Positions 33,407 to 61,002 of a DNA stretch of 64,000 nt are shown here, in pieces. The number at the start of each line of letters is the position of its first letter. Position 1 is the stretch's first letter. The translations under genes were made by a program, and so were the position numbers. The notes below the pieces were generated by a model. The model saw only the letters and a program-made list of their open reading frames with translations. It was not told the DNA's origin and did not search any database. This DNA comes from a phage, in assembly GCA_024686575.1 (NCBI GenBank), contig GCA_024686575.1_4863.1, one strand, 5' to 3'.

Positions 33407-34705
33407 TTAGGTGATGTGGAATTTAGGGATGTACTCTTTAACCACGGTTTCACGACCGTGCATCGCACCCATTGCAGTGGTCATAACGTTCGAGAAGCCG
33501 GATGAGATATCCGCAGCGATTGCCCGTGGCTCTTCTGCTTTGTGTGCAGAGGCGCACGCCGCACAACAGTCTACGTGACCTTGCTGACATAAGATGGGTC
33601 GGCGGAGTCGAACAACTTTACCGAATTGCGTTTTCAAATACTCTTCGGTGAGTTGGGTAACTTTACCGTTAATCATCGCGTTCATGCCAACATAACGCTT
33701 GTAGTTATACTGGTTAATTACAAGTGCATGAGTCAGTTTTGTCCCGCAATCTCCAGGCACGATTTTGTGGTTCTGGAAGATCATCTGGATGATACGTACC
33801 TGCTCACCACCCTTAGCGGTTTCTGCACCACGCATGAAGGAACCTTCACGAGTGTCATTGAACTTCTCTACCAGGTACTTCATCCCGGTCTGATCAACTT
33901 CCATCAGACTCGTTGGGATTAAGGTAAAATCTGCACCTTCTTTAAAAGCGGTCTGAATACCATACATCAGCATCAGCTTACGGCGACGCATACGCGCTTT
34001 AGGCGAGCTGTAGAACTCAACGGACTGGTCGCCACTCAACCACTCTTTATCAAGTTCGTCGAGAGCTTTTTCAATCATAACGATAACCGCAGGGTTATCC
34101 AGTTCGTCTTTGTGCTTCAACAGCAACGCATCACGTACCTTATACGCGTCAGGATGCGTTGTAAGGCTTCTAATTGTTCCTGTTGGGGCAATCCCACGAC
34201 ACAACGGAGCAAGCTCGTGTAGACCCCCTACAAAGCGTCCTATCATGTATGGCCGAATCGCGTCTTCGTTGTCTGGATCGGTGTCATCGTATTCCACACA
34301 TCGTTCGTACATCTCCTTACGGTAGGCTAGCGGGTCACGGGACTCTGCCAGATACGGGAGACGGGTACCGAATGCGTAATAGATAGCAATCCAGTTAAAG
34401 ACATAGCGACCCACGGTAGTCGGAATGGGACCAGCTAGACCTGGGTACATCTCAGGACGCAATTCAAACTGCTCTTCCGGCACGAACAGCTCTTCATCTT
34501 TTTTGCACCCTTCAATCGGCACCCATTTAATTTCTTCGTTTTCCCAGTAGTGGGGCAAGCCGTCAATGTAGTTCAGGTCGTATTGCTCAGGTGGCTCACC
34601 TTTTTCATTAAAGATTGCCACGTTGAAAACCGCAATACGCCACACCAGTCTACGCCAAGCTTCTGCTTTACACGCAGCGACCAGATAATCAATCTTGTTC
34701 ATCAT
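33407..34705 (-). CDS. hypothetical protein
   Basis: 432-aa ORF. Confidence 0.5.
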   Translation of the reverse strand: MMNKIDYLVAACKAEAWRRLVWRIAVFNVAIFNEKGEPPEQYDLNYIDGLPHYWENEEIKWVPIEGCKKDEELFVPEEQFELRPEMYPGLAGPIPTTVGRYVFNWIAIYYAFGTRLPYLAESRDPLAYRKEMYERCVEYDDTDPDNEDAIRPYMIGRFVGGLHELAPLCRGIAPTGTIRSLTTHPDAYKVRDALLLKHKDELDNPAVIVMIEKALDELDKEWLSGDQSVEFYSSPKARMRRRKLMLMYGIQTAFKEGADFTLIPTSLMEVDQTGMKYLVEKFNDTREGSFMRGAETAKGGEQVRIIQMIFQNHKIVPGDCGTKLTHALVINQYNYKRYVGMNAMINGKVTQLTEEYLKTQFGKVVRLRRPILCQQGHVDCCAACASAHKAEEPRAIAADISSGFSNVMTTAMGAMHGRETVVKEYIPKFHIT

Positions 34706-38686: not shown

Positions 38687-39022
38687 TTAACTTGCATCGT
38701 GTGGAACAGTCACCCAATCGTGCCATTTTTCAGAGTAAAGACGATAAGCCATCTTTGGATTCTGATCGACACTACCGGCCGGGTTCTCATTCCACAACAC
38801 GTACGTATATAACTCGTACGACGAAGTGTTACGGATACTTGACGTGCGGGTGACGTAGTACGTCAACCCGCGTTGGTTAAGGAACAGGCCGCTGTAATGT
38901 TCAGTGACCATGTAGTAGTGAAACGCCTGGTTGATAGTGGCGTCGGTACAGAGTTTCTTAGCGACGTCTTCTACGCCGGGATACGCCTTTAGAATGTTTT
39001 CGAGAAAACTTGCTAAAGTCAT
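38687..39022 (-). CDS. hypothetical protein
   Basis: Track ORF 38687..39070 overlaps the 3' end of the helicase gene; internal ATG (MTLASFLENIL...) reduces the overlap. Start and reality uncertain. Confidence 0.35.
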   Translation of the reverse strand: MTLASFLENILKAYPGVEDVAKKLCTDATINQAFHYYMVTEHYSGLFLNQRGLTYYVTRTSSIRNTSSYELYTYVLWNENPAGSVDQNPKMAYRLYSEKWHDWVTVPHDAS

Positions 39023-41702
39023 TCCGATGTAGGGTGGCAGCGGCTCTGCTGGACGCGGCGGAGTGAGCATGTGATTTCCTTACAACGTAGGGGGATGTCG
39101 CAATACGGAACGACAATACGACATCCTTGAGTGATTTCTGACGGGCATTCAGGTAATTGCAATGCTTCGGTACGTTATACGCATGGAATAACCACACCGT
39201 TGGGTCTATTTCACCCCATTCGTTGTGGAGAATCTTACGTGGACGACCGGCCATCTGTTCGTTCAGTTGCTGGTCTTCTACCGGGGTTGAGATGTACATG
39301 TGTACCAACCCAGGTTTATCGACCGCAGTCCCCGCTTTCCCCGGTGTGGAGATAGAGAAGTCTGCTTGGATAAAGTCGTCATACGAATCGCCTGCATTAT
39401 ATTTCGCCACCATCAGTGGATGGAATACAGGGTCACGCGATAACTTATCTTTCACATACTCGGTAAAGAACTCACACATCGCTACCGTAGCAAAGAGTAT
39501 CAAACATTTTTGGCCAGGCTGATACCGTTTAAGAAACGATTTCTCAACCACATCCCAGATCATGTTTGCGTATTCTAAATGCAAGTTCTCTTTAATCAGC
39601 TTCCCTTCGAAGAGCTTGTGGTTATACGGCGTCATCTTCGACGCCCACCACGCAAACTTCTTATCATCCAGTCGATAGTACAACGCCTTCACGTCAACCA
39701 CCGGAATGATTGGAATACTGATTCGGTACTCCATTGGGAAACGTTCTAAATACCGCTCCGCGATAAAGGCTTTACTGCTACCCGGCTTAAGAGTTGCAGA
39801 CATCTCTATCGATGCCGGCGGATTCAACATTATACCAGCCATGTAAACGAGGTGAAAATGCTCGTGCACCTCATCCATCGCCACCAGACCCACACCCAGA
39901 ACATCATAAAACGTATCCAGGTCCACAGGGTTAGTCGCAGCAGTGTTAATGTACTCCTTCAGGAAACGCTGTAGAGAGACCGTGGGGAGGATTATTACCT
40001 TAATACCACGACTATCTAGCTCTCCCGACTTACCCATCTCCAGTGCGTCGTAAATCGCCTGTACGCCTGTACAAACTAACACCTCGTCACGAAGTATACG
40101 AAGTCCTGTTTCATCATCACAGACGTCAAACAGCCATTTGGGAACGTACGACGGACGGTGAATCAATGCGGTACGGGTTCCCCGTTTAACCATCGACTTC
40201 ATACAGGTCTTGGTGTTGTGCGTAACAATCCACTGTCCCAGAACGTACAGATGTTCATCGTTGTCGACAGTAATGCACGAACCATGACTCTTCCCAACAT
40301 ACACGATAGACTTAACACGGAGTTTCAGTGTATCGTTGTATTGACCGTTGTCGCGACACAGCGCTTTCTTACGCGGGAGGTTGAACAGCATTGAAGGTGT
40401 CTTGTGCCTAATGAACACCATATAAGCCAATTTACCTTCTCTACGTTCTCCTTTGTAAGTAAAGAACGGACGTTTTGTGGATATAGTTGCAATACCACCT
40501 AACGATCTCACCAACTCCTGGACGCCCAACGCCAGCGACTCGCTGGTGCTACAATACGACGGCTGCCCTCCATCTTTATTCACGGTTCCGTCCGTGTCCA
40601 TTAAACCGCGCAGCAGCTCCCAGCGTTGCTCAATCGAGCCTTCAAAATATTCATCCGGAATATATTTTCTATCAGACCCTTTCCCTAGAAGACCGTGGTC
40701 CTGCAAATAGAGCGGCCAGGACATCGGCACTTCACGTCTGCGACGACGCATTCTATACTGATAACGATCGGCGGGAACCATCTCGGTATCGTCAGGTAAA
40801 TACTTCCTCACCAGCTCGACAGTTTCTGGATCGGCTGATGTGAAGCCTACCGCGCCATTTTCACAGGCGTGGCCGTTTCCCAAGAATGCCCCCATGAGAT
40901 ACGGATGTATTTTAAAGCACTTTTCACTTGTCTCTTCCGGTTCAGGTAACGGAATGTAGACTCGCGGGTTCGGCATTGCAATCAGTCGCTGAATTTCTTC
41001 CGTACTTCTTACCTGCCACCGAGTGTTTGGTGTGGTATTGACGTAGTAGGATTGCCAGAGATGCTCTTTACCGACCACAGTCTTACGTCCGTCAGCAAAA
41101 GTTATCTCGTAAAAATCCCAATCTTCATGCGGGTACACCGCCGTCACATTCGTCGGCTTCCCATCCCTACCGATTACCACATCCCCGACTTCTAGCTCTC
41201 CATGTAATTTCCACCCACCAGGAATCCTTACACGCTGATCCCATCTACAGACCTTTCCTCTTCCTGTTTGTATCGCGAAAACCGTTTGTGAACGCGATGG
41301 ATCTGTTGCGGCGGCTACGACTTCATTCTGATAATAGAAACGCGACTCTGGGTCTGTTTCTTCCATCTTGAATCCGTAATTATCAAACGTGCACTTATAA
41401 GGTTCTGCACGTTCAGGATGGTGCTCTGTTAGCTTGTACTGAAAAGCGTATTCAATTGCTGCTCGTTGGAGGATATGTTTAATCTTCTCAGCGAACACTT
41501 TATGGAAAATGAACGTCCTTAAAGACGGAATGTGAGCGTAGTACGCGTCACCGCGTTCCGTAGTTATTCGTCCATGTTGCTTGCCCATCTTTGGGGCGTG
41601 CATATTCTCTTCGGCCCACGCGAGTATGGCCCTTTCAGCCTGGCGGATAGGGACTTCAACCCGTACCCCCATACTCGTGTAAGTCATTTGAATTTCTACC
41701 AT
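38958..41702 (-). CDS. SF2 DExH-box helicase interrupted by an intein
   Basis: Extein motifs: P-loop-like QTGRGKV | TKT split by the intein, motif II LVAMDEVHEHF, motif III MSATLKPG, motif VI QMAGRPRKI. Likely start is M20 (MVEIQ..., ATG 41700-41702) because a terminator hairpin for the upstream gene lies at 41727-41745. Confidence 0.75.
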   Translation of the reverse strand: MVEIQMTYTSMGVRVEVPIRQAERAILAWAEENMHAPKMGKQHGRITTERGDAYYAHIPSLRTFIFHKVFAEKIKHILQRAAIEYAFQYKLTEHHPERAEPYKCTFDNYGFKMEETDPESRFYYQNEVVAAATDPSRSQTVFAIQTGRGKVCRWDQRVRIPGGWKLHGELEVGDVVIGRDGKPTNVTAVYPHEDWDFYEITFADGRKTVVGKEHLWQSYYVNTTPNTRWQVRSTEEIQRLIAMPNPRVYIPLPEPEETSEKCFKIHPYLMGAFLGNGHACENGAVGFTSADPETVELVRKYLPDDTEMVPADRYQYRMRRRRREVPMSWPLYLQDHGLLGKGSDRKYIPDEYFEGSIEQRWELLRGLMDTDGTVNKDGGQPSYCSTSESLALGVQELVRSLGGIATISTKRPFFTYKGERREGKLAYMVFIRHKTPSMLFNLPRKKALCRDNGQYNDTLKLRVKSIVYVGKSHGSCITVDNDEHLYVLGQWIVTHNTKTCMKSMVKRGTRTALIHRPSYVPKWLFDVCDDETGLRILRDEVLVCTGVQAIYDALEMGKSGELDSRGIKVIILPTVSLQRFLKEYINTAATNPVDLDTFYDVLGVGLVAMDEVHEHFHLVYMAGIMLNPPASIEMSATLKPGSSKAFIAERYLERFPMEYRISIPIIPVVDVKALYYRLDDKKFAWWASKMTPYNHKLFEGKLIKENLHLEYANMIWDVVEKSFLKRYQPGQKCLILFATVAMCEFFTEYVKDKLSRDPVFHPLMVAKYNAGDSYDDFIQADFSISTPGKAGTAVDKPGLVHMYISTPVEDQQLNEQMAGRPRKILHNEWGEIDPTVWLFHAYNVPKHCNYLNARQKSLKDVVLSFRIATSPYVVRKSHAHSAASSRAAATLHRNDFSKFSRKHSKGVSRRRRRR
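40215..41249 (-). mobile_element. intein (Hint domain) with a two-motif LAGLIDADG homing endonuclease
   Basis: 345 aa (residues 171-515 of the track ORF). N-terminal block CRWDQRVRIP...GELEVGDVVIGRDG and TxxH-like block; LAGLIDADG-like motifs PYLMGAFLGNGHA and LLRGLMDTDGTV; C-terminal blocks CITVDNDEHLYVL and GQWIVTHN followed by +1 Thr. Boundary codons checked on the nucleotide sequence. Confidence 0.8.
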
Positions 41703-41716
41703 GCTGCCCCTCTTCG

Positions 41717-41745
41717 CACAAAAAAAGAGGGGCGCAAGGCCCCTC
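41717..41745 (-). terminator. rho-independent terminator
   Basis: Hairpin GAGGGGC-GCAAG-GCCCCTC with a minus-strand T-run, directly after the beta'-like gene stop (41749). Confidence 0.65.
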
Positions 41746-41748
41746 GGT

Positions 41749-43854
41749 TTACAACTCAATTACCACAGCGGCTCCTAGGTCATCGTACAACGATGCCGGG
41801 ATTTTGTACTCGGTATAAAAACCAACGCGATCGATATTCCCCTGCTGTCCTTCAAACAACAACATCGGAATTGCCGAGCGCAAACTAATGAGCGTGTTGT
41901 GATCGACAAACCGTTTCCCTGTAGCGTTAGTAGAATCCTCACTGTCAAATCCTACTGCCGGGAACGGATTGGTTGGCGACTCTACACGAGATATCGCCAA
42001 CATAATCGCAATGTGCGTCATCGGTATACCACTCAGCTTACGCTGGATATACTTAAACGTGTCCATCAACGCATAAGTACACTGTTTCTCTGTAGCACCA
42101 CCCATTTCAACCAACGTCACCGGTTTCACACGACCTTGTTTCTTGTTCAGCTTCACAGTCGAGGCTGTGTTGATGATTTCCACAATGTCTTCGTTCTTAT
42201 CGGCAGCAATCGAACGGAGCTTGGTTTCTAAGCCGGCTACGAACTCCGCCATCGATTCAGAACGGTTGGTGTAGACCAGGACCGGGTGTTTCGGGTTCCA
42301 TCCTTTTAAGGGGATTTCTACCGTCTTCTTCTCGATACGAATGTTCGCTCGTTGTTTCAAGAAGTAGTGCAGGAACGGTTTAGAGAAGTTCCCACAAACA
42401 CCCATTCGCACATCGATAGAATCCGCAGCGATTATCTGCCCATCTTCTAAACGACGTTGGAAAGTTAAGTCGGTGATTTCTGGTAATGCCGTTTCATCAA
42501 TTGCATCGAGATCTTCATGATACGCAATCTGGCTCAGCTCCGAATAAACTTTGTCGGTAACAACCAACTCGTATTCTGACCAATTCCCACGCTGTGGTTT
42601 TGGCAGCAAGCACAACCCTTTCAGAGAGTTATGTTTGTATTCGGTCATATACTCACGCATACGTGGGGTGAGTACCAGGTTGAGCAGATAACGCAAGAAG
42701 TCAAGGTGCTTGGTAGAGAGAATTCCCTGTGTACCCTTTTCCGAGATGGACGTGGATGCCAGGTGACCTGGTGACGTACCTTCAGAGAGGTTATAAATCA
42801 AATCCCCCATACAGGTCGCACAGATGGACTGATTCGCCATCTCTTTACAGGTCATGGCACTACGGAAGACCAGCGGTTTGCCAACCAGGTCTGCGTATCC
42901 GCCTTTCTCAAATCGCAACCACGGACCATTATCGCCTTCTAAACGATAACGCATCCCCACCATCGCTTTATAGGCACGCTCATCCAGCTGCGTATCCTTA
43001 AACGTGTAGCGGTGTGCGTGTGTTGTACCGCAGTCGTCGTACGTGAAATACATCAGTACGTTTGCTGCCAGCTGCAGTTTACGTGAGGCGTATTCTGCTT
43101 CGGCAATCTTGTCAGTGTTGTACAGGTGGGAACGTGAAGTTGCACCAGATTCTTTCAAACGCGAAATAACCGAATGCATTCCGGTAAAGAAGCCTTCCCA
43201 CACCTGATTGGTGTATACACGTGAGTCAATTTCTGACGTTTTGCCGCGCACGAACGCTTGCAGTACCTGGTTCATCTTCACGGTACCGTCCAGTACCGAC
43301 ATTACGACTGGGTTATACCGCAGCGCAGGGTCTTTGAAGATTTTCTCGATAAGCTTATACGCTTCTTCAACCATATCCTGACCATCTTCATCGTAGCCAG
43401 TAGGATACTGCACTTCCCACTGACGGATGAGTTCGAAGTTCGGGTGGTCGTAGATCTCCATCATCGTATCAAAGTCGATTGTCGTACAATAGGACAGCAA
43501 GTTCTTCACTGTCATGTTGAACGCATCGGCGTAGACATGTTGACTCAGGATATAACGCGTTTCAGCAAGGTCGACACCTGCTTTACGGGCCAGTACCGCT
43601 GCTTCCGACATAAAGTCCAGATGCAGGTCATCTGTTGCTACCTGACCTGGACGATACGCCATGGTCGATGGAGTGGGCACCTGCGGATACAGACGCGACA
43701 CACCCCAATACGGCCAGCTGAGTTTGATGTGGCGACTAGACATTTCCAACGACTTACCATCGTCGAAAGTCACGTAATAACGCCCGCGTAGTTTCCACAC
43801 CTGATCAGAGTTAAGCATACGCAAATCACGTACGTGTACAGAACGACCCGCCAT
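41749..43854 (-). CDS. multisubunit RNA polymerase beta'-like subunit, C-terminal part
   Basis: 701 aa; STSISEKGTQGILSTKH resembles the beta' trigger loop (SIGEPGTQLTMRTFH); ATG overlaps the TAA of the upstream beta-like gene (TAATG). Confidence 0.6.
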   Translation of the reverse strand: MAGRSVHVRDLRMLNSDQVWKLRGRYYVTFDDGKSLEMSSRHIKLSWPYWGVSRLYPQVPTPSTMAYRPGQVATDDLHLDFMSEAAVLARKAGVDLAETRYILSQHVYADAFNMTVKNLLSYCTTIDFDTMMEIYDHPNFELIRQWEVQYPTGYDEDGQDMVEEAYKLIEKIFKDPALRYNPVVMSVLDGTVKMNQVLQAFVRGKTSEIDSRVYTNQVWEGFFTGMHSVISRLKESGATSRSHLYNTDKIAEAEYASRKLQLAANVLMYFTYDDCGTTHAHRYTFKDTQLDERAYKAMVGMRYRLEGDNGPWLRFEKGGYADLVGKPLVFRSAMTCKEMANQSICATCMGDLIYNLSEGTSPGHLASTSISEKGTQGILSTKHLDFLRYLLNLVLTPRMREYMTEYKHNSLKGLCLLPKPQRGNWSEYELVVTDKVYSELSQIAYHEDLDAIDETALPEITDLTFQRRLEDGQIIAADSIDVRMGVCGNFSKPFLHYFLKQRANIRIEKKTVEIPLKGWNPKHPVLVYTNRSESMAEFVAGLETKLRSIAADKNEDIVEIINTASTVKLNKKQGRVKPVTLVEMGGATEKQCTYALMDTFKYIQRKLSGIPMTHIAIMLAISRVESPTNPFPAVGFDSEDSTNATGKRFVDHNTLISLRSAIPMLLFEGQQGNIDRVGFYTEYKIPASLYDDLGAAVVIEL

Positions 43855-46091
43855 TATTTATCCTCCCGAATTGGACGCACTAATTCAAAACCTTCACAGC
43901 GATGGATGTTACGTATCATCCTGTCAATCTGCGAATCACCCATTGGCAGTTTCTTACGATCGACCAGCACCCCTGGATTGGTTGGTGTTGGCGAGTTATA
44001 CAGCCCCGTTACGATCGCACGGTGTACCGCAGGGTTATTAGCGCGGTCATGAGTTTCGGGGAAGTTGCCCGGACCAAAGCCGTCGGTAAGACGCTGCTCG
44101 GAAGGACCACCCCACTTCAACCCTTTCAGGTTAATCGGATATGAACCACGTCCTTGGTTGGATGCATCAATACAACCCAAATAGTTCGTGTACATCGACG
44201 AGATACTGGAGAACTCACGACCGGTTTTATCCAGGCGCAGAGTCTCTACCATGCCGACGTAAAACTGGTTCTTCGTCCACTCTTTCTCACCCTGATAGTT
44301 AGTAATCAGTAGCTTAGACTTGCGTGGTGCATACTCGCCTAGAGCACGGCAGATTTCTACCTGGGTAGCATTCAATTCGTGGGGAAGCCAGATACGAATC
44401 GTGAAGTCGTAAATCTCTTTAAAGAGTTCCAGACGTGACCCAGTATCCGGGTGACTGGCATTGAGATAGAATGTCCAGCGTGGGTTATAGCGATCGATAT
44501 AGTCCATCAGGATTTCCCAGGCTTCATCAACCTGGTTGGCGGCAAGTAAAGGTTTCAACCGCATCTTCAACTGCTCGGATGCAGCAGACCAATACATGTG
44601 GAACAGCGCAGCATAAGTCGAACGACGAATTACGGCGTTCATGGAACGAATGACATGCACACGTTCTCCGAACTCGTTAATCGGCATTTCTTCATCAGGC
44701 CGCACTGCGCCCACGATACCTTTTGTACCTGAACGGTCGGTGATTTTCGATGAGACGGTAACTGGGATTGGATAACGTACCACGATGCGTATCGTGTAAC
44801 TACCAATTGGGTCCCAGAGACCACGCTGAACCGGCTGCGCCAGTTTGTTTAACACGTTCTTATCAGCAGAACGGTTATACTCGCCTTTACGCATGGCTTC
44901 ATCGTATTCACGACCAATCTCTTCACGGAAGTCGTTATAGACTTCATACGTCTCAGAACAGAACGCCTTGTCAAGAATCTCAAACGCTTTCGGTGACCAG
45001 ACGATATTCTTGTCCTTGGACATCGCAAAATAGAACCGTACGATATCATTGTAAAAACGTTTCAAAGCGTTCGCGTAGTGATCTAACTCGCGTTTGTTCT
45101 CTTCGGTACATGCGATATTGTTAACACCACGATCGCATTTGGTTTCGTCCCGCCATACCTGAATATCAACGACACGAGAACCGGTACGTTCCATCTTTTC
45201 AAAGTCGCCAGCCAGTCGCGCTTTGTAATGCTCAGGGTCGGCATCAACATACTCACAACGGTCGAAGTGCGGAGAGACATGTTGTGTTTCACCTACGTGC
45301 GAGTCAATGGCTGCCCATAGCTTATCGAAACGGCGCGCGGCAATAACCAACCCATCATCACGAATTGCCTGTCCTTTATTGGGCAGGTACTGTGGTCGAC
45401 GAACGCCATCAATACCCGTTGTCCCATACGTATCAAGCAGGTACTCGTCGTCGCGCAAGGTAAAGTCGATTGCACGCAAACCATAAGCGTGCATCGCTTT
45501 CGCTGCAGTTTCGGAGATGGTGTACGAGTCCTCGATAATGTCCGGGTGCGACATCGTCACGGTGTGCAGGTTGACCCCATCGACAAACTCACCGTCTTTC
45601 TGTGCCGGCAGCACGGTAAGCATTTCATCTTTTTCCAGGTGCTGCGTCTGCCCGCGCAGCAACGCCTGAAGTTTCCCAGTAGCCTCTTTCTTAGACGAGA
45701 AAATGTTATCGTGGTTGGTGTAATACTTAATATCGATTACATCAATCATCACTTTGCGCTGGTTGGTTAAATCTGCGCGCGTGAAGAAGATAACATGTTG
45801 GAGCGGTTCGTGATCCCCTTCACGACCATAGCGTGCAAAAACAGCTGCACGAGTAACACCTTCTTTGGTTGTGTAACTGCACACGGTACCACTGTCTTCC
45901 ACGATATCGTTAAAACAATAATCGTGGTAGTTCACATCAGCGCCGGTAAAATGGATAGTCGGATCTGGATTGTCCAGTGGTACCGCCGACTTCATATGTC
46001 CACCCACCATTGAGGCACGTGCCCCAGATACGCCAGTGATATTCACCTCACGGTCAGCAACGCTTGACATGAGTTCGACTGGTGTTTTCAT
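43854..46091 (-). CDS. multisubunit RNA polymerase beta-like subunit, C-terminal part
   Basis: 745 aa; DRSGTKGIVGAVRPDEEMP resembles the beta GRHGNKGVVSKI..EDMP segment, with a downstream YVGMVETLRLDK (compare YMYMLKLNHLVDDK); AAAGGAG RBS; 15-mer motif 31 nt upstream. Confidence 0.7.
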   Translation of the reverse strand: MKTPVELMSSVADREVNITGVSGARASMVGGHMKSAVPLDNPDPTIHFTGADVNYHDYCFNDIVEDSGTVCSYTTKEGVTRAAVFARYGREGDHEPLQHVIFFTRADLTNQRKVMIDVIDIKYYTNHDNIFSSKKEATGKLQALLRGQTQHLEKDEMLTVLPAQKDGEFVDGVNLHTVTMSHPDIIEDSYTISETAAKAMHAYGLRAIDFTLRDDEYLLDTYGTTGIDGVRRPQYLPNKGQAIRDDGLVIAARRFDKLWAAIDSHVGETQHVSPHFDRCEYVDADPEHYKARLAGDFEKMERTGSRVVDIQVWRDETKCDRGVNNIACTEENKRELDHYANALKRFYNDIVRFYFAMSKDKNIVWSPKAFEILDKAFCSETYEVYNDFREEIGREYDEAMRKGEYNRSADKNVLNKLAQPVQRGLWDPIGSYTIRIVVRYPIPVTVSSKITDRSGTKGIVGAVRPDEEMPINEFGERVHVIRSMNAVIRRSTYAALFHMYWSAASEQLKMRLKPLLAANQVDEAWEILMDYIDRYNPRWTFYLNASHPDTGSRLELFKEIYDFTIRIWLPHELNATQVEICRALGEYAPRKSKLLITNYQGEKEWTKNQFYVGMVETLRLDKTGREFSSISSMYTNYLGCIDASNQGRGSYPINLKGLKWGGPSEQRLTDGFGPGNFPETHDRANNPAVHRAIVTGLYNSPTPTNPGVLVDRKKLPMGDSQIDRMIRNIHRCEGFELVRPIREDK

Positions 46092-55130: not shown

Positions 55131-55556
55131 TTAGCTCCTGTCAAATTCAAGGACGGAAATGTAATATTTGCCTGGTCGATAGTCCGCATACTTAACGGTG
55201 TCGACTTGATGGTAAACTTTTACACCCCGAAATGTTAACCAATGATATTTGATACTCAGCTTACGGCTAGCGACGAACTCCTCGTCTAACCGCCAGGCTT
55301 GTTCAGGAGGCACATCTAATCCAACGAGCAGATCCTTCTCATCTATCTCGAGATACGCACCATAATCACCAACCACCACACGGTTCCAACGTAGGCATAC
55401 AGATACACCGCCTATTGTGGCAGCCCTTACCTTATCGAACCCGTTTAAGTGTTGCTGATAAACTGACAAAGCTTCTTCACGCACTTTCTTGGGCAATGGT
55501 CGGTATCGATACCGTGCTGCCAAGCCCTCGATATACGCCAATATAGGATGCTGCAT
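55131..55556 (-). CDS. hypothetical protein
   Basis: 141-aa ORF; terminator upstream of its start region. Confidence 0.45.
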   Translation of the reverse strand: MQHPILAYIEGLAARYRYRPLPKKVREEALSVYQQHLNGFDKVRAATIGGVSVCLRWNRVVVGDYGAYLEIDEKDLLVGLDVPPEQAWRLDEEFVASRKLSIKYHWLTFRGVKVYHQVDTVKYADYRPGKYYISVLEFDRS

Positions 55557-55570
55557 ACAGCCCCCAGTGA

Positions 55571-55604
55571 AGAAAAAAAGAGGGGCCGAAGCCCCGTCTT
55601 TTTA
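55571..55604. terminator. rho-independent terminator (possibly bidirectional)
   Basis: Hairpin GGGGC-CGAA-GCCCC flanked by an A-run and CTTTTT. Confidence 0.6.
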
Positions 55605-56183
55605 ACACGTCGCGCCAAGTTCCGAACAGGGATCACCATCTTCCCAGTCGAAAGCTGACATACGTGCCCAGTTAAGTTGAATATCCACTTTATCGATTCG
55701 ACTCAGTCGTACTGCGCGATCTTCATTGGTAGCCCATTGCCAAATCTTATCTTCATCGTACTTCGTCGAAATGCCCGATGTTGCTTCGCGGAAGTGGTCA
55801 TCGGTACGCATATACGCATTCCCTTTGAACACATCCAACCGCGAAAAGCCATTCTCATAACCAGTCGCCATACCGTCATTATACAACTTACGATATTCCG
55901 GCATGGCAACGAGGAATGGCTGTAAAGCAGCATTGGCGAACTGGAATTCACCCAACTCTTCGATCTGTCTTACCATCTCTACCGCGTCGCTATAACGTAA
56001 CTTACGTGCGGTACTGAATGTTTCACGGAAACGCTCCAGTGAGATTAAGTCCTGACAATGTTCTTTTACACGGTCAACGAGATCGGGTGCCAGGCTAGAC
56101 AGCGAAAACGATTCTTTGAATACGCTGAGTGCCCCGCTACCTTCGGTCTGTTTCGTCCACACCGTGCTACCTTGTAGCCACAT
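55602..56183 (-). CDS. hypothetical protein
   Basis: 193-aa ORF. Confidence 0.5.
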   Translation of the reverse strand: MWLQGSTVWTKQTEGSGALSVFKESFSLSSLAPDLVDRVKEHCQDLISLERFRETFSTARKLRYSDAVEMVRQIEELGEFQFANAALQPFLVAMPEYRKLYNDGMATGYENGFSRLDVFKGNAYMRTDDHFREATSGISTKYDEDKIWQWATNEDRAVRLSRIDKVDIQLNWARMSAFDWEDGDPCSELGATC

Positions 56184-56196
56184 TACAATACTCCTA

Positions 56197-57792
56197 TTAG
56201 CCCATCACCGCTTCCAACGGAATGCCTTCTTCATCGTCCTCATCTGTCTCAATAAGGAACTGGTTCTGCATACTGATTAGCTCGTTATGTAAAACCATGC
56301 CGTGTTCTACGCGGTCCACATCAGTAGAAGACATAAAGCCGTTATCTGGACGGAATTGGAGCGCCAACTTCATCTCAGTTTCATCGACTGGCAAACGTAC
56401 CTGGAACTGGTCACCATCGAAATCTCCATTTGCCATCTTTATCACACGGTCAGAGATACGCAGCGAACACTGGTTAACATCGGTAACAACTTCGTCGATG
56501 AACAGCGTCTGAATAGACAACTGTACCAGCGTCGGGTTACGCAGCGGTATGACCATGATCCCAAGACCACCTGGGGATTCGCGAATCAGTTCTTTAAAGA
56601 TTTCGTCTACAAGCGGGTCATACTGCATTGCCGCTTTTGCAACGATACGTTCACATTGCCGTGACGAATAACCCCGTCGTAGCAATTTATTCTCGATGTG
56701 GGTCGACATCAACCCAACCATCCAACGCCATGGTGCTTTTAACTTCCAGGCATCGTGTGGTTCTGAGATAGGTGAGATGGTTGCGCGACCACCGAACGGA
56801 ATATGGGTGGAACCCAATTTCGCGCGATAGTCACCCGGTTTACCTTCCATAGACTCACGACGGAAGTCCATGTGGAAGTACGTTAACTGACGGTTCGCTT
56901 TCAAAGCGCGACTAATCAGAAAACGCGGTTCGATCGCTTTACGCCGCGTATAAAGTAACGCGATATTTTTCACCGCATCAATAGCACCCGTGAACACTGG
57001 GTCTACCATGACACCACGACGACCTTCCTCAGTAACGATAAGTTTAGAGGAGATTAGCGGTAAGTGTCTTGGGAAGAATGCATGGCGTTGCGTTTCGAAT
57101 AGCTCCTTCCATTGTAAACGTAAGCGTTCGCCTTCAGCGGCGTTATGCCGATTAGGTGCGAAGATTTCCTTCCAGGCTTCTGGCGTGGTAAGGATGTTAA
57201 AGATACTAACGTGGTTATCAACCAGATTGCGCAAGCCACGAACGAAACCATGTTCTTCCAATACACGTTTCACAGCATGTGCGCGTTTACCGTCTGGTTC
57301 TTCTATAAGGTAATACGGGTCAATCATCCACATCATCAAGTCATTACCGCGTTCGATAGTGACCTTGTTACGTTCAAACTTCTTCAACTTGCTATTAAAG
57401 AAAGCATTGAACATTGCCCAGAATCGTGGGTTGACGAAGTTACCCATTTCATCAGGTGCACGTAACCATACATCGGATTCAATTCGATGTTCAGTTACAA
57501 CATAGCCACACGTCGGACACTTACAACCGAGATTGTAACGATGCGCGATCGGTGCCGGACAATCCAAACTACAAATCGGTGCAGAGTTCAGTTCTTCGTC
57601 AACGATTCTGTTCTGTACCATGCGATCGATAAGTTCAGCAACCTCGATCGCATCCCCGTTAACAGCGACATCGTTAATAATAGTGGGTGGTTTAATACCT
57701 TTGGCAGCAGCTTCTATTTGCAAATCGGACAAATAGTTATCCTGACTAACCAATCGGCCGGATATTCCGTAGAATTTTGGTACCTTTCTCAC
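56197..57792 (-). CDS. multisubunit RNA polymerase beta'-like subunit, N-terminal part
   Basis: 531 aa; zinc-finger-like CSLDCPAPIAHRYNLGCKCPTCGYV and catalytic-motif-like NGDFDGDQ (canonical NADFDGD); GTG start with GAGG RBS. Confidence 0.8.
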   Translation of the reverse strand: MRKVPKFYGISGRLVSQDNYLSDLQIEAAAKGIKPPTIINDVAVNGDAIEVAELIDRMVQNRIVDEELNSAPICSLDCPAPIAHRYNLGCKCPTCGYVVTEHRIESDVWLRAPDEMGNFVNPRFWAMFNAFFNSKLKKFERNKVTIERGNDLMMWMIDPYYLIEEPDGKRAHAVKRVLEEHGFVRGLRNLVDNHVSIFNILTTPEAWKEIFAPNRHNAAEGERLRLQWKELFETQRHAFFPRHLPLISSKLIVTEEGRRGVMVDPVFTGAIDAVKNIALLYTRRKAIEPRFLISRALKANRQLTYFHMDFRRESMEGKPGDYRAKLGSTHIPFGGRATISPISEPHDAWKLKAPWRWMVGLMSTHIENKLLRRGYSSRQCERIVAKAAMQYDPLVDEIFKELIRESPGGLGIMVIPLRNPTLVQLSIQTLFIDEVVTDVNQCSLRISDRVIKMANGDFDGDQFQVRLPVDETEMKLALQFRPDNGFMSSTDVDRVEHGMVLHNELISMQNQFLIETDEDDEEGIPLEAVMG

Positions 57793-57805
57793 TCTGTCAA
57801 CCTCA

Positions 57806-57845
57806 ACAAAAAAAGAGGGAAGGACGGAGGCGTTAGCCCCCGTCC
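57806..57845 (-). terminator. terminator-like stem-loop
   Basis: Imperfect hairpin GGACGGAGG...CCCCCGTCC preceded on the plus strand by an A-run; downstream of the 617-aa gene. Confidence 0.45.
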
Positions 57846-57874
57846 GTTTCCTAACTACTCAGTAACCGATTCGA

Positions 57875-59728
57875 TTACAGTTTGAAGTTGCTCAGAGACA
57901 CGCCCAGACCGAAATCGGAACCGCTTGCAGACAGGCCGTTGCCAGACAGCGTGAAGTCTTCCCCACCGTTGTTGAAGAACAGGGAGGTCGCCATCGTGTT
58001 GTAGGCATTTACACCAGTCATAGACCAGGTGCAGTTGTTACGGACGAAGTCCAGCAGGCATTTACCGAAGATCGGGTTGATAGCCATATCCAGAGATTCA
58101 CCGGTAGCTTGCGGTGCTTTGGATGCGAACAGAGAAGCGGCCAGTTTCAGCATGTAGATACGCTGCTGACGCTCGTTCAGTTCACGGTGGCTGTAGGACT
58201 GTGCGTTCAGGTAGCTATAGACGTCGTTCGCGTTATCACCCAGTTTGGTAACAACGGAAATCAGGTCCATATCCTGGAAGCTGCGTTTCTGTGCAGTACC
58301 GGTGTAAACACCGGAAACAGTCGGTACGGCTGCTTTCACGATGTGGCTGCAATGGATGGTACCATTGAAGGCATCGCCCAGCTGTGCTTTCAGTGCAGAA
58401 GCAAATACTGCAGTGAAGCTGGTCGCTGCAACAACTTCGCCGTTCTGATCACGCGGGGACATGGAATTCAGAATAGCGAGCAGCTGTTTCAGAGAGTTGT
58501 CGTAACCGACCGCAATTTCAGACAGCATAGTAGACAGACCACCCAGGCCGTTACCGGCACGATGGCTAACTACCAGTGCTGCTTCACGCGGTGCGAACAT
58601 ATCCAGGCAACCTTCGATAGCTTCACGGCTACCGTCGATTTTGGATACATCAGGACGAGCGTCAGCACCCCAGGACAGGTATTCTGCCACACGGGAGAAC
58701 TTGCGATCTTGTTTGTTCAGGCGTTTCACAAACAGGTCACGCCAGCCACCGATTGCCGCGATTTCTGCAAATGCAGCCAGCAGCAGCAGTTGACGTTCAT
58801 ACGGTGCCATTGCACCTTCAGTTTGAGAATCGACCAGACTTACTACGATTTCAGCCTGCAGCTGTTTCAGGTCGTAGACGCCGTTAACGACAGGCTTCTG
58901 ACCGGTGAAACGCATATTGACGAAACCGGTACCGGATACACGCGGATACACCTGTACCTGATTGGTGTCCAGCAGAGTCGGAGTGGCATCGGTTACGTTG
59001 CTTGGGCTGTGCTCAACGGTGATTGCGAAATCAGCACGTTGTGCGTGGCCGTTAGCATCCACAACCGCGCCATCTTCCAGCGGCATTACTGAGGCCTGAT
59101 AACGGTCATGCTTACGCAGGTTCAGTGTACCCAGGTAGCCTGCGATACGACCGAAGATTCCCATCATCATCTGACCCATCAGGGTACGTGCCCACTCAGC
59201 ATCCAGAACTTTACCCAAGTCTGGTACGGAGTTGATGATCATGAAGTTCGCATTGGTCAGACCATGCGCTTCCATGATGTTTTTCTGTACTACTGCCAGC
59301 ACGTCTTTGTTGAACAGTTCAGTGATGGTGTAGTAGTCTTCCTGGCCGTTGTTGGTGGTTTCTTTCAGACGCAGAGACTGACCGCGTTCAAAGAAGATAA
59401 TACCGTACAGCCAGTGGCCCTGCCATTGGCCTGCGACGTACGCCGCGGAACCCATTTCGTTACCCACGCCGACGATGGTGCCCCAGCGGAATGCGTTGAG
59501 GTATTCGTTGCTTTTCTTCAGCTCATCCAGGAGGTTGGTGAAGTGCATTGCATAAGTGCTGATGTTGCGGATGCCAAATGCGTTATCGAATTGGCTGACA
59601 GTAGAAGTACCCGGCACAGCAGTTTGCACTTTTACAGTCTCGTTGCCCAGACCGCCCAGTGGTGCGGTGTCTTGAGTCTGAGTGTTGTTCTGCTGAGCGT
59701 TGTTGTTAGAGTCAACGATTTTTACCAT
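57875..59728 (-). CDS. abundant-protein candidate (nuclear-shell-like or major structural protein); function unassigned
   Basis: 617 aa; ATG with AAGGA RBS; two copies of the 15-mer motif upstream (59774-59788, 59868-59882) and a terminator-like hairpin downstream; Gly/Ser-rich C-terminus. Confidence 0.6.
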   Translation of the reverse strand: MVKIVDSNNNAQQNNTQTQDTAPLGGLGNETVKVQTAVPGTSTVSQFDNAFGIRNISTYAMHFTNLLDELKKSNEYLNAFRWGTIVGVGNEMGSAAYVAGQWQGHWLYGIIFFERGQSLRLKETTNNGQEDYYTITELFNKDVLAVVQKNIMEAHGLTNANFMIINSVPDLGKVLDAEWARTLMGQMMMGIFGRIAGYLGTLNLRKHDRYQASVMPLEDGAVVDANGHAQRADFAITVEHSPSNVTDATPTLLDTNQVQVYPRVSGTGFVNMRFTGQKPVVNGVYDLKQLQAEIVVSLVDSQTEGAMAPYERQLLLLAAFAEIAAIGGWRDLFVKRLNKQDRKFSRVAEYLSWGADARPDVSKIDGSREAIEGCLDMFAPREAALVVSHRAGNGLGGLSTMLSEIAVGYDNSLKQLLAILNSMSPRDQNGEVVAATSFTAVFASALKAQLGDAFNGTIHCSHIVKAAVPTVSGVYTGTAQKRSFQDMDLISVVTKLGDNANDVYSYLNAQSYSHRELNERQQRIYMLKLAASLFASKAPQATGESLDMAINPIFGKCLLDFVRNNCTWSMTGVNAYNTMATSLFFNNGGEDFTLSGNGLSASGSDFGLGVSLSNFKL

Positions 59729-59773
59729 TTTAAATATTCCTTAATAGTGATTGCAATCATAGTTCGGTTCGCA

Positions 59774-59788
59774 GAGATAATATCTGCC
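59774..59788 (-). promoter_or_regulatory. 15-mer variant AGATAATATCTGCCT, copy 6
   Basis: Two mismatches; 46 nt upstream of the 617-aa gene start (59728). Confidence 0.45.
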
Positions 59789-59867
59789 TGTAATTTCATG
59801 GAATGCAAGTATGCCGTCGCTTACTTACAAGGCACATAGTCCAGACATTTCTCAGGAACTGTCACAT

Positions 59868-59882
59868 AGATAATATCAATCT
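59868..59882 (-). promoter_or_regulatory. 15-mer variant AGATAATATCAATCT, copy 7
   Basis: Two mismatches; second copy in the same intergenic region, also about 50 nt upstream of the + gene start at 59935. Confidence 0.4.
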
Positions 59883-59934
59883 GAGATATTTTTGACTGTG
59901 ACTGACTTCCTATGTGGAATCTAAGGAGTCTGCC

Positions 59935-61002
59935 ATGTTCAGCCAAGCCGAGTTAAACCAAGTGGCCATAAAGGGTCACAGCACGGACCCCTCCGCTATA
60001 ACATTAGCGGCTCACGTAAAAAACAACAGCCAGCGTATACGCAACTACTTCGAACAGCTTAATCGCAGTGCTGGTAATGGCCATTTGTTGCAACAGGTGT
60101 TGTCTGCCATCGGCTATGCCGGTGAACCAGAGTACGAAGACATCGAATGGGCTTGCCGTCGCAAGCTTGTTCAGATCGGTAACGCCTTACGCTTAACGTC
60201 TGTTGGTGAGTACGGTCAAATCTTTAATAGCAAGTTTATCCAGGGCCAAGATGAGGTAATCTCTCTCGTAGCCCGCCCAGTAAATCCAGACCTTTCGTTC
60301 CGCGACTACACCCCCGCCCGTTACCTCTACCATGAGTATACCAACCTCAATTGGAAGTTCGGTGACGGACGGCCCCGAGGTGTTACGGTGATCGAAATCA
60401 ACCTGGTTGCTTTGCTTTGGCAATATGTCAAAGGTCAGCAGCACTACAGTCGCGGCACCGAACCTATTGCCACACCTGTGTATCTCCAACGACATGTGAT
60501 CTCTCGCATGTTGCCGAGCTACATGGATATCGCCTTTGTAAATATACATCGTGCGATAGCCTTCGGGAAAGAGATTGAACCGGATGAAACGTTACGTGTC
60601 ATTCCTGTTCCGCCGCTTCAAGCTTTAGCTGTGAAGCACGCAAAAGGCATCCGTAGTAAACTACTGGCTGCCAACCCGTTACCGGGACAAGTCTTAAACA
60701 ACATCCCATTGTTCTTCCAACATCCTGGTGAAGAAGGCCATACAGCACTGGAACTGATTGTCTTTCGAGAACCAGGTCAAACACTGCAGAACACCTGGCA
60801 CCAGAACATGGTGAACTGGTACTGGGCACTGTTTTGTCTTCAATACAACCAGGGGAATATGGAGAAACACAAACGTACGATGTTGGTTGATTTGGCGCGT
60901 TATGTGGACTCTAAAGTCCTCACACGTTTGACCAAATCCTTCTATAACTTTATCCAACGCGATTTGATTATCCCGTTGACGACAGAGCTAGAAGAAAAAT
61001 AA
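59935..61002 (+). CDS. hypothetical protein
   Basis: Track ORF starts at 59914; the ATG at 59935 (MFSQAELNQ...) is preceded by AAGGAG; strong terminator at 61055-61088. Confidence 0.5.
   Translation: MFSQAELNQVAIKGHSTDPSAITLAAHVKNNSQRIRNYFEQLNRSAGNGHLLQQVLSAIGYAGEPEYEDIEWACRRKLVQIGNALRLTSVGEYGQIFNSKFIQGQDEVISLVARPVNPDLSFRDYTPARYLYHEYTNLNWKFGDGRPRGVTVIEINLVALLWQYVKGQQHYSRGTEPIATPVYLQRHVISRMLPSYMDIAFVNIHRAIAFGKEIEPDETLRVIPVPPLQALAVKHAKGIRSKLLAANPLPGQVLNNIPLFFQHPGEEGHTALELIVFREPGQTLQNTWHQNMVNWYWALFCLQYNQGNMEKHKRTMLVDLARYVDSKVLTRLTKSFYNFIQRDLIIPLTTELEEK

Follow-up and report, generated by a model that had tools for sequence, protein, structure and literature searches.

The window analysed here is a stretch of phage DNA of 64,000 nucleotides (GenBank assembly GCA_024686575.1). 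On its minus strand the ORF listing of the window gives a reading frame at 56197..57792 that encodes 531 aa from a GTG start codon. Two motifs stand out in the translation. The first is a cysteine-rich stretch, PICSLDCPAPIAHRYNLGCKCPTCG, with cysteines at positions 74, 78, 90, 92 and 95. The second is NGDFDGD, residues 455-461 (window 56410..56430), which is contained in KMANGDFDGDQFQ. An initial annotation, made from the letters of the window, had read the two motifs as the zinc-binding domain and the catalytic loop of the N-terminal part of an RNA polymerase β′ subunit; the reading frame, the cysteine-rich stretch and NGDFDGD that it named are all present in the 531-aa translation. The surrounding region (55500..60000) aligns over its full length with Salmonella phage SPN3US and about 30 Seoulvirus relatives at 98-99% nucleotide identity, as determined by megablast against a phage collection.

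The upstream neighbour, at 57875..59728, is a chimallin-like gene with the RefSeq counterpart ACQ60_gp244. Laughlin et al. 2022 (PMC9365700) describe a "diverged chimallin homologue (gp244)", and the gene is taken to be this one on the basis of that paper and the matching RefSeq locus tag. A phmmer search of its product against the PDB returned no match even at E≤10. The chimallin of Pseudomonas phage phiKZ is gp54, and the gene order chimallin then β′N would mirror that of gp54 and gp55 in phiKZ. The next gene, at 55602..56183, is a homologue of SPN3US gp24. An intrinsic-terminator-like hairpin, found by a terminator scan at 55582..55595 on the minus strand, comes after it and likely marks the end of the transcription unit.

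A second hairpin sits between the chimallin-like gene and ORF 56197..57792. Read from the sequence, it is a 10-bp stem-loop on the minus strand, GGACGGGGGC-TAAC-GCCTCCGTCC (57845..57822), followed by a T-rich tract, the whole spanning 57808..57845. It escaped the strict terminator scan because the T-run begins 7 nt past the stem; it may act as a leaky terminator or stabilise the RNA. A scan for sigma-70 promoters gave 3 sites against a shuffled expectation of 5.4, hence nothing in excess. As transcription in such phages relies on phage-encoded polymerases, the scan says little.

Relatives of the ORF product were collected from 5.8 billion proteins. 42 were found, and 27 full-length ones (46-80% identity) were aligned with the query to give a 28-sequence alignment. 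The alignment bears directly on the start of the gene. The GTG codon (57790..57792, minus strand) is the first start codon past the preceding in-frame stop, and no in-frame ATG, GTG or TTG was seen in the ~20 nt upstream of it. A Shine-Dalgarno-like GAGG, read from the sequence, lies 8 nt upstream (57801..57804, minus strand), and the 60 nt 5' of the GTG are identical in SPN3US. The N-termini of the homologues fall no more than a few residues from the same position; 26 start with M and two with V. The GTG start given in the initial annotation is thus backed both by the GAGG and by the N-termini of the homologues. Translation from an internal ATG (M58) would instead yield a protein of 474 aa missing the first 57 residues. 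This is how the gene is annotated in phage SaP7, where the first exon begins at the ATG equivalent to M58, and GTG starts are the minority. Such a start is nevertheless very unlikely here, since conservation across residues 5-57 extends to homologues with as little as 46% identity, conserved positions running from G9 onwards and both G9 and P36 being invariant, and since the profile of PHROG 2987 described below aligns from residue 8. The position of the GAGG also argues against it, the annotations of SPN3US and EC001 place the start at the GTG, and two metagenomic homologues start with V near the GTG-equivalent position.

The product was compared with known proteins by profile, sequence and structure. 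PHROG 2987, a family labelled "RNA polymerase beta subunit", was matched by residues 8-516 (E=8e-179). A phmmer search against all PDB chains matched phiKZ gp55 (7OGP_A) over residues 52-494 at E=2e-38. The β′-like subunit of the non-virion RNA polymerase (nvRNAP) of Bacillus phage AR9 followed with E=3e-8, and bacterial β′ chains, dozens of them, with E ~7e-5. Residues 313-476 align to residues 329-480 of E. coli β′, an alignment in which NGDFDGD sits on NADFDGD. These codons (56365..56856, minus strand) delimit the double-psi β-barrel (DPBB)/active-site region, which also gave a sub-threshold Pfam match. The Pfam match, to RNA_pol_Rpb1_2, covers residues 414-471 and scores 20.4 bits, under the cut-off of 25.3, so it is through phmmer, Foldseek and the phage homologues that the protein is assigned to the cellular β′ family.

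The structure was predicted with AlphaFold2 from the 28-sequence alignment (mean pLDDT 75.6), and Foldseek was used to compare the model with PDB structures. phiKZ gp55 again came first, in this case from the DNA/RNA-bound nvRNAP (8QUE_A), with E=6e-28 over 534 alignment columns. Chains of AR9, of bacterial β′ and of cyanobacterial γ (RpoC1) came next. The TM-scores are low, 0.45 to 8QUE_A and ≤0.45 overall, probably reflecting the free orientation of domains in a multi-domain subunit modelled as a monomer. The β′ N-terminal identity proposed earlier thus holds over residues 52-494 in the phmmer alignment and over 534 columns in the Foldseek alignment. An isolated motif match with no RpoC-like similarity around it, which would have counted against that identity, was looked for; what was found is extensive similarity in both sequence and fold.

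We put at roughly 95% the probability that ORF 56197..57792 (minus strand) encodes the β′ N-terminal subunit of the nvRNAP of an SPN3US-like jumbo phage (Seoulvirus, Chimalliviridae-type), orthologous to SPN3US gp23 and phiKZ gp55, as the PHROG, phmmer and Foldseek comparisons indicate. Homology to phiKZ gp55 (PHROG 2987) extends over the full length in both sequence and fold. A canonical bacterial RpoC is one chain of about 1,200-1,500 aa with Rpb1 domains 1-5 above threshold, whereas this protein has 531 aa and its sole match, to Rpb1 domain 2, is sub-threshold. It resembles the N-terminal part of β′ in role and is not a canonical RpoC.

SPN3US gp23 (SPN3US_0023, ACQ60_gp243, YP_009153317.1) is also 531 aa long, is identical at 529/531 positions, and shares the GTG start and the neighbouring genes. 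The two genes differ by 22 nucleotides and the two proteins by two substitutions, L162R and T516A. SPN3US gene 23 is listed as the homologue of phiKZ ORF055 (supplementary table, PMC5105663). phiKZ gp55 (7OGP/7OGR/8QUE/9RJS, chain A) likewise has a Cys4 zinc site, a DFDGD-bearing DPBB and a cistron that ends after the DPBB, and the phiKZ β′C subunit, gp74, is encoded elsewhere, as it is for ORF 56197..57792. The identity between the two proteins is ~24-25%, and phiKZ has NADFDGD where NGDFDGD is found here. Published structural work on gp55 covers both its Zn2+ domain and its DFDGD loop (PMC8287921, PMC7618050). The phiKZ homologue is without a rudder, and the phage enzyme needs neither α nor ω (PMC8287921, PMC7618050).

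The β′-like N-terminal subunit of the AR9 nvRNAP (7S00/7S01, chain d) is also a split subunit and has glycine at the equivalent of G456; it matches the model with a Foldseek E=5e-16, but sequence similarity is limited to residues 312-487. Cyanobacterial RpoC1 (γ) and the N-terminal half of bacterial RpoC have a like fold and catalytic loop (Foldseek E ~1e-12). The cellular β′/γ proteins are however only 15-18% identical, the phage protein is shorter than they are, and its Pfam Rpb1 domains fall below thresholds.

The zinc site of the initial annotation is borne out by conservation and by the alignment to phiKZ gp55. Four of the five cysteines (C74, C78, C92 and C95) are invariant in the 28-sequence alignment and C90 is variable. 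The four form a Cys4 motif, C-x3-C-x13-C-x2-C, at codons 74-95 (57508..57573, minus strand). C78, C92 and C95 align with cysteines of gp55 in the phmmer alignment, and C74 is offset by a difference in spacing, the first pair being C-x3-C here and C-x-C in phiKZ gp55 and E. coli β′. In the 2024 cryo-EM structure of the phiKZ nvRNAP with DNA/RNA, the N-terminus of gp55 is a four-cysteine Zn2+-binding domain equivalent to the zinc-binding domain of E. coli β′, and the cysteines of the present protein correspond to those of that domain; AR9 is without an N-terminal Zn-binding domain (PMC7618050). The four-cysteine domain is thus present in the sequence, and Zn2+ binding is predicted by homology to the phiKZ subunit.

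The rest of β′ is encoded by a separate gene in the same window. At 41749..43854 on the minus strand lies the gene for a 701-aa protein with an ATG start, the orthologue of SPN3US gp35 and phiKZ gp74. Its product matches phiKZ gp74 (7OGP_D) at E=8.8e-39 (phmmer vs PDB) and PHROG 3015 at E=6e-241, with a weak match to Pfam Rpb1_5. By position it is SPN3US gp35, which Thomas et al. 2016 (PMC5105663) named as the nvRNAP β′ subunit with the C-terminal conserved regions. The β′ chain is therefore split, as the initial annotation proposed on seeing the two cistrons. The separation had been estimated at 10 kb; the measured gap between 41749..43854 and 56197..57792 is 12,342 nt, or 12.3 kb, with both genes on the same strand. 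The split falls after the DPBB, ORF 56197..57792 ending 70 residues past the DFDGD loop with the gp74-like gene separate. A β′ split after the DPBB is common to the virion-packaged RNA polymerase (vRNAP) and the nvRNAP, and it coincides with the rpoC1/rpoC2 split of cyanobacteria (2020 review, PMC7598289).

Directly upstream of the β′C gene, at 43854..46091 on the minus strand, lies the gene of an nvRNAP β-like subunit of 745 aa with the second DPBB, orthologous to SPN3US gp34 and phiKZ gp71-73. The stop of this gene and the β′C start share 1 nt, and its product matches 7OGP_C at E=2.4e-29 (phmmer) and Pfam Rpb2_6 at 24.3 bits, above the cut-off of 23.4. The β N-terminal subunit of the SPN3US nvRNAP is gp77 (PMC5105663), and the phiKZ enzyme has gp123 as a further β-like subunit.

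The window also holds a second β′-C-like paralogue, at 33407..34705, which by position is the orthologue of SPN3US gp42. It matches PHROG 2962 at E=4e-175 and shows a weak cross-match to PHROG 3015. Its product had no match in the PDB by phmmer, so its assignment to the vRNAP rests on the PHROG match and the literature. The presence of this gene raises the question of whether ORF 56197..57792 is instead the vRNAP β′ N-terminal subunit with 33407..34705 as its true partner, and from the sequence alone a reader could not choose between the two partners. The homologues decide strongly in favor of the nvRNAP, leaving the other pairing only a negligible probability. The best solved homologue, phiKZ gp55, is an nvRNAP chain, and 41749..43854 matches gp74 of the same enzyme. 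The published vRNAP subunits of SPN3US are gp240, gp241, gp218, gp42 and gp244, a list without gp23, in which β′ consists of gp240 as the N-terminal and gp42 as the C-terminal part (PMC5105663). Thus the SPN3US vRNAP β′N is another gene, gp240, and its partner gp42 is the orthologue of 33407..34705. Orthology to the vRNAP β′N family (phiKZ gp180/SPN3US gp240) was not found for ORF 56197..57792, the best matches all being nvRNAP chains. The pairing with 41749..43854 is preferred over that with 33407..34705 because the two products are orthologous to two chains of one solved phiKZ enzyme.

Within the nvRNAP subunit so assigned, NGDFDGD (codons 455-461; 56410..56430, minus strand) is by alignment the predicted Mg2+-chelating loop with the aspartate triad D457, D459 and D461. 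In the DPBB, residues D457, D459, G460 and D461 are aligned with DFDGD in both gp55 and E. coli β′, and the phmmer alignments place the whole loop on NADFDGD in phiKZ gp55 and on SGDYDGD in AR9. N455, D457, D459, G460 and D461 are invariant in the 28-sequence alignment. Position 456 is Ala in 20/28 sequences and Gly in 8/28, the glycines being scattered across the alignment. The comparison with other phage polymerases that the initial annotation called for therefore finds Gly in eight of the 28 homologues and in AR9 too. All bacterial β′ chains compared, that of E. coli included, carry NADFDGD, as does phiKZ gp55, and a glycine in this loop could on these grounds be thought to mark an inactive or functionally altered subunit. 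This is extremely improbable. Gly456 recurs in more than a quarter of the alignment (8/28) and the metal-binding aspartates are invariant; AR9 nvRNAP has SGDYDGD, yet the enzyme is reported to be catalytically active (PMC8287921); and the ORF is intact and near-identical in more than 30 independently isolated phages. The Ala to Gly change, as judged from these sequences, is a tolerated, ordinary polymorphism in the phage family and no distinguishing feature. Mg2+ binding by the aspartate triad is predicted from the phiKZ and AR9 enzymes. A pseudogene reading of ORF 56197..57792 was also considered and was rejected.

A role in the polymerase can be proposed by homology. The N-terminal part of the ORF product would form a clamp with the Cys4 zinc-binding domain, and the C-terminal part would form one of the two active-site double-psi β-barrels, in which D457, D459 and D461 would chelate the catalytic Mg2+. 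The polypeptide would end just past this barrel and the remaining β′ would come from gene 41749..43854, the gp74-like subunit bringing the bridge helix, the trigger loop and a second Zn site. The other DPBB would be brought by the β-like subunits. By analogy with phiKZ, these would join two further subunits from genes outside the window, a β N-terminal one and a σ-like fifth one; the latter, gp68 in phiKZ, would be needed for assembly of the active enzyme and for promoter recognition. The assembled, host-independent enzyme would then transcribe the late phage genes, as the nvRNAP is described to do without the host polymerase (PMC5105663). Activity, assembly, promoter use and timing are thus predicted from the behavior of the phiKZ and AR9 enzymes.

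The split polymerase has already been described (Thomas 2016; Yakunina 2015; de Martín Garrido 2021/2024), and the closest model is structurally solved. The novelty implied in the initial annotation does not hold, as the split β′ is published and the gene is near-identical to an annotated SPN3US gene. Its family has been characterised biochemically and has solved structures. Gly456, the GTG start and the 12-kb separation are all in keeping with the phiKZ-like group. Published hallmarks of phiKZ-like jumbo phages include split β/β′ genes as well as two multisubunit RNA polymerases, and the value of the gene as a discovery is small. The practical value lies in annotation. Public labels for this gene vary ("beta", "beta subunit 1/3", "alpha", "rpoC"), and one record has a truncated start; records should call it the nvRNAP β′ N-terminal subunit and begin it at the GTG.

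Comparison with sister phages shows a further feature of the gene, inside its catalytic loop. By junction mapping, an insertion site for a group I intron falls between codons G456 and D457 (56424..56425, minus strand). The site is empty both in the window and in SPN3US. Rfam searches of the whole window at gathering thresholds and of 55400..58000 at E≤1 found no intron and no other RNA family, thus the gene is uninterrupted in the window. In SaP7 a 1404-nt insert lies exactly between G456 and D457 (L002 2382..3785); it matches RF00028 at 51.9 bits and carries an HNH/NUMOD1 endonuclease ORF. EC001 has at the G456/D457 site an ORF-less group I intron of ~356 nt (RF00028, 69.4 bits), the core of which is ~79% identical to that of the SaP7 intron. 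Inserts similar in size to the EC001 intron are present in JN03 and SPLA3 and are probably the same ORF-less intron, and Proteus phage 7 probably has the endonuclease-bearing intron as in SaP7. The exon ends fit the group I rules, with U preceding the 5′ splice site and a G as the final intron base. The codons flanking the intron in the intron-bearing alleles differ synonymously from those of the intron-less allele, a pattern that is consistent with co-conversion or with target-site immunity.

From these comparisons it appears likely that the catalytic-loop codons G456/D457 are a polymorphic group I intron homing site within one phage species, with three allelic states. No published description of an intron at G456/D457 was found. 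If the site is such a homing site, the entry of the intron into an essential active-site codon could be studied with the window's allele as the natural recipient, or as a resistant site. Intron polymorphism in the catalytic motif would then be a small, neat case of a mobile element targeting an essential active-site sequence.

Elsewhere in the window, the gp36-like helicase gene (38958..41759) has a 346-residue LAGLIDADG/Hint (intein-like) insertion inside helicase motif I; SPN3US gp36 is without this insertion.

The catalytic loop of the non-virion RNA polymerase (nvRNAP) β′N gene (56197-57792, minus strand) is an intron insertion site in sister Seoulvirus phages. The exact insertion point of the group I intron is the codon boundary between G456 and D457 within the NGDFDGD motif. 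In the window this site is empty (56424/56425), and the β′N genes of both the window and SPN3US are free of introns. Phage SaP7 (locus L002, 2382-3785) has a 1404-nt form of the intron containing an HNH/NUMOD1 homing-endonuclease ORF, and EC001 (locus L005, ~1383-1738) has an ORF-less form of ~356 nt. Judged from insert size, the long form is probably present in Proteus phage 7, and the short one probably in JN03 and SPLA3. The codons around the site show synonymous differences, reading GCA AAT GGA/GAT TTC in the intron-less and GCT AAC GGT/GAT TTY in the intron-bearing genes (slash, intron site).

Public records split the intron-bearing alleles into two separate genes, and the annotated first exon of SaP7 (L002 3747-4982) begins at an internal ATG (M58), not at the GTG. 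The product names are also inconsistent: "beta subunit", "beta subunit 1", "beta subunit 3", "alpha subunit" and "rpoC".

The β′N gene is unlinked to the β-like (43854-46091) and β′C (41749-43854) gene pair. Within the pair, one base is shared between the β-like stop codon and the β′C start ATG (43852-43856, minus strand), which suggests that these two nvRNAP subunits are translationally coupled. A second β′-C-terminal-like gene (33407-34705, minus strand; PHROG 2962, SPN3US gp42 homologue) encodes a subunit of the virion-packaged polymerase and is open to confusion with the true β′N partner.

Upstream of β′N is a gene for a 617-aa protein (57875-59728, minus strand), corresponding to RefSeq ACQ60_gp244 and to PHROG 8316, "unknown function". 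It appears to be the diverged SPN3US homologue of chimallin, the phage-nucleus shell protein, reported by Laughlin et al. 2022 (PMC9365700). The protein has no PDB match by sequence, even at E≤10. The order of the chimallin-like and β′N genes parallels that of gp54 and gp55 in phiKZ, where gp54 is chimallin. In the interval between the two genes, a strong stem-loop with a GC-rich stem of 10 bp precedes a T-rich tract (57808-57845, minus strand), only ~15 nt upstream of the β′N Shine-Dalgarno. One possible role of this element is to attenuate read-through from the preceding chimallin-like gene.

The helicase-like gene (38958-41759, minus strand) has a 346-aa insertion, ORF residues 170-515, that is absent from its homologue SPN3US gp36. 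The insertion shows a LAGLIDADG match and weak Hint/Hom_end matches. It interrupts helicase motif I (TGRGK/.../TKT) and its C-terminal boundary is a canonical THN/T. Its first residues are "VC", and thus it is either an intein with an unusual first residue or one that adds a Val to the spliced motif I. The gene itself probably begins further in than the listed ORF, at the ATG of residue 20.
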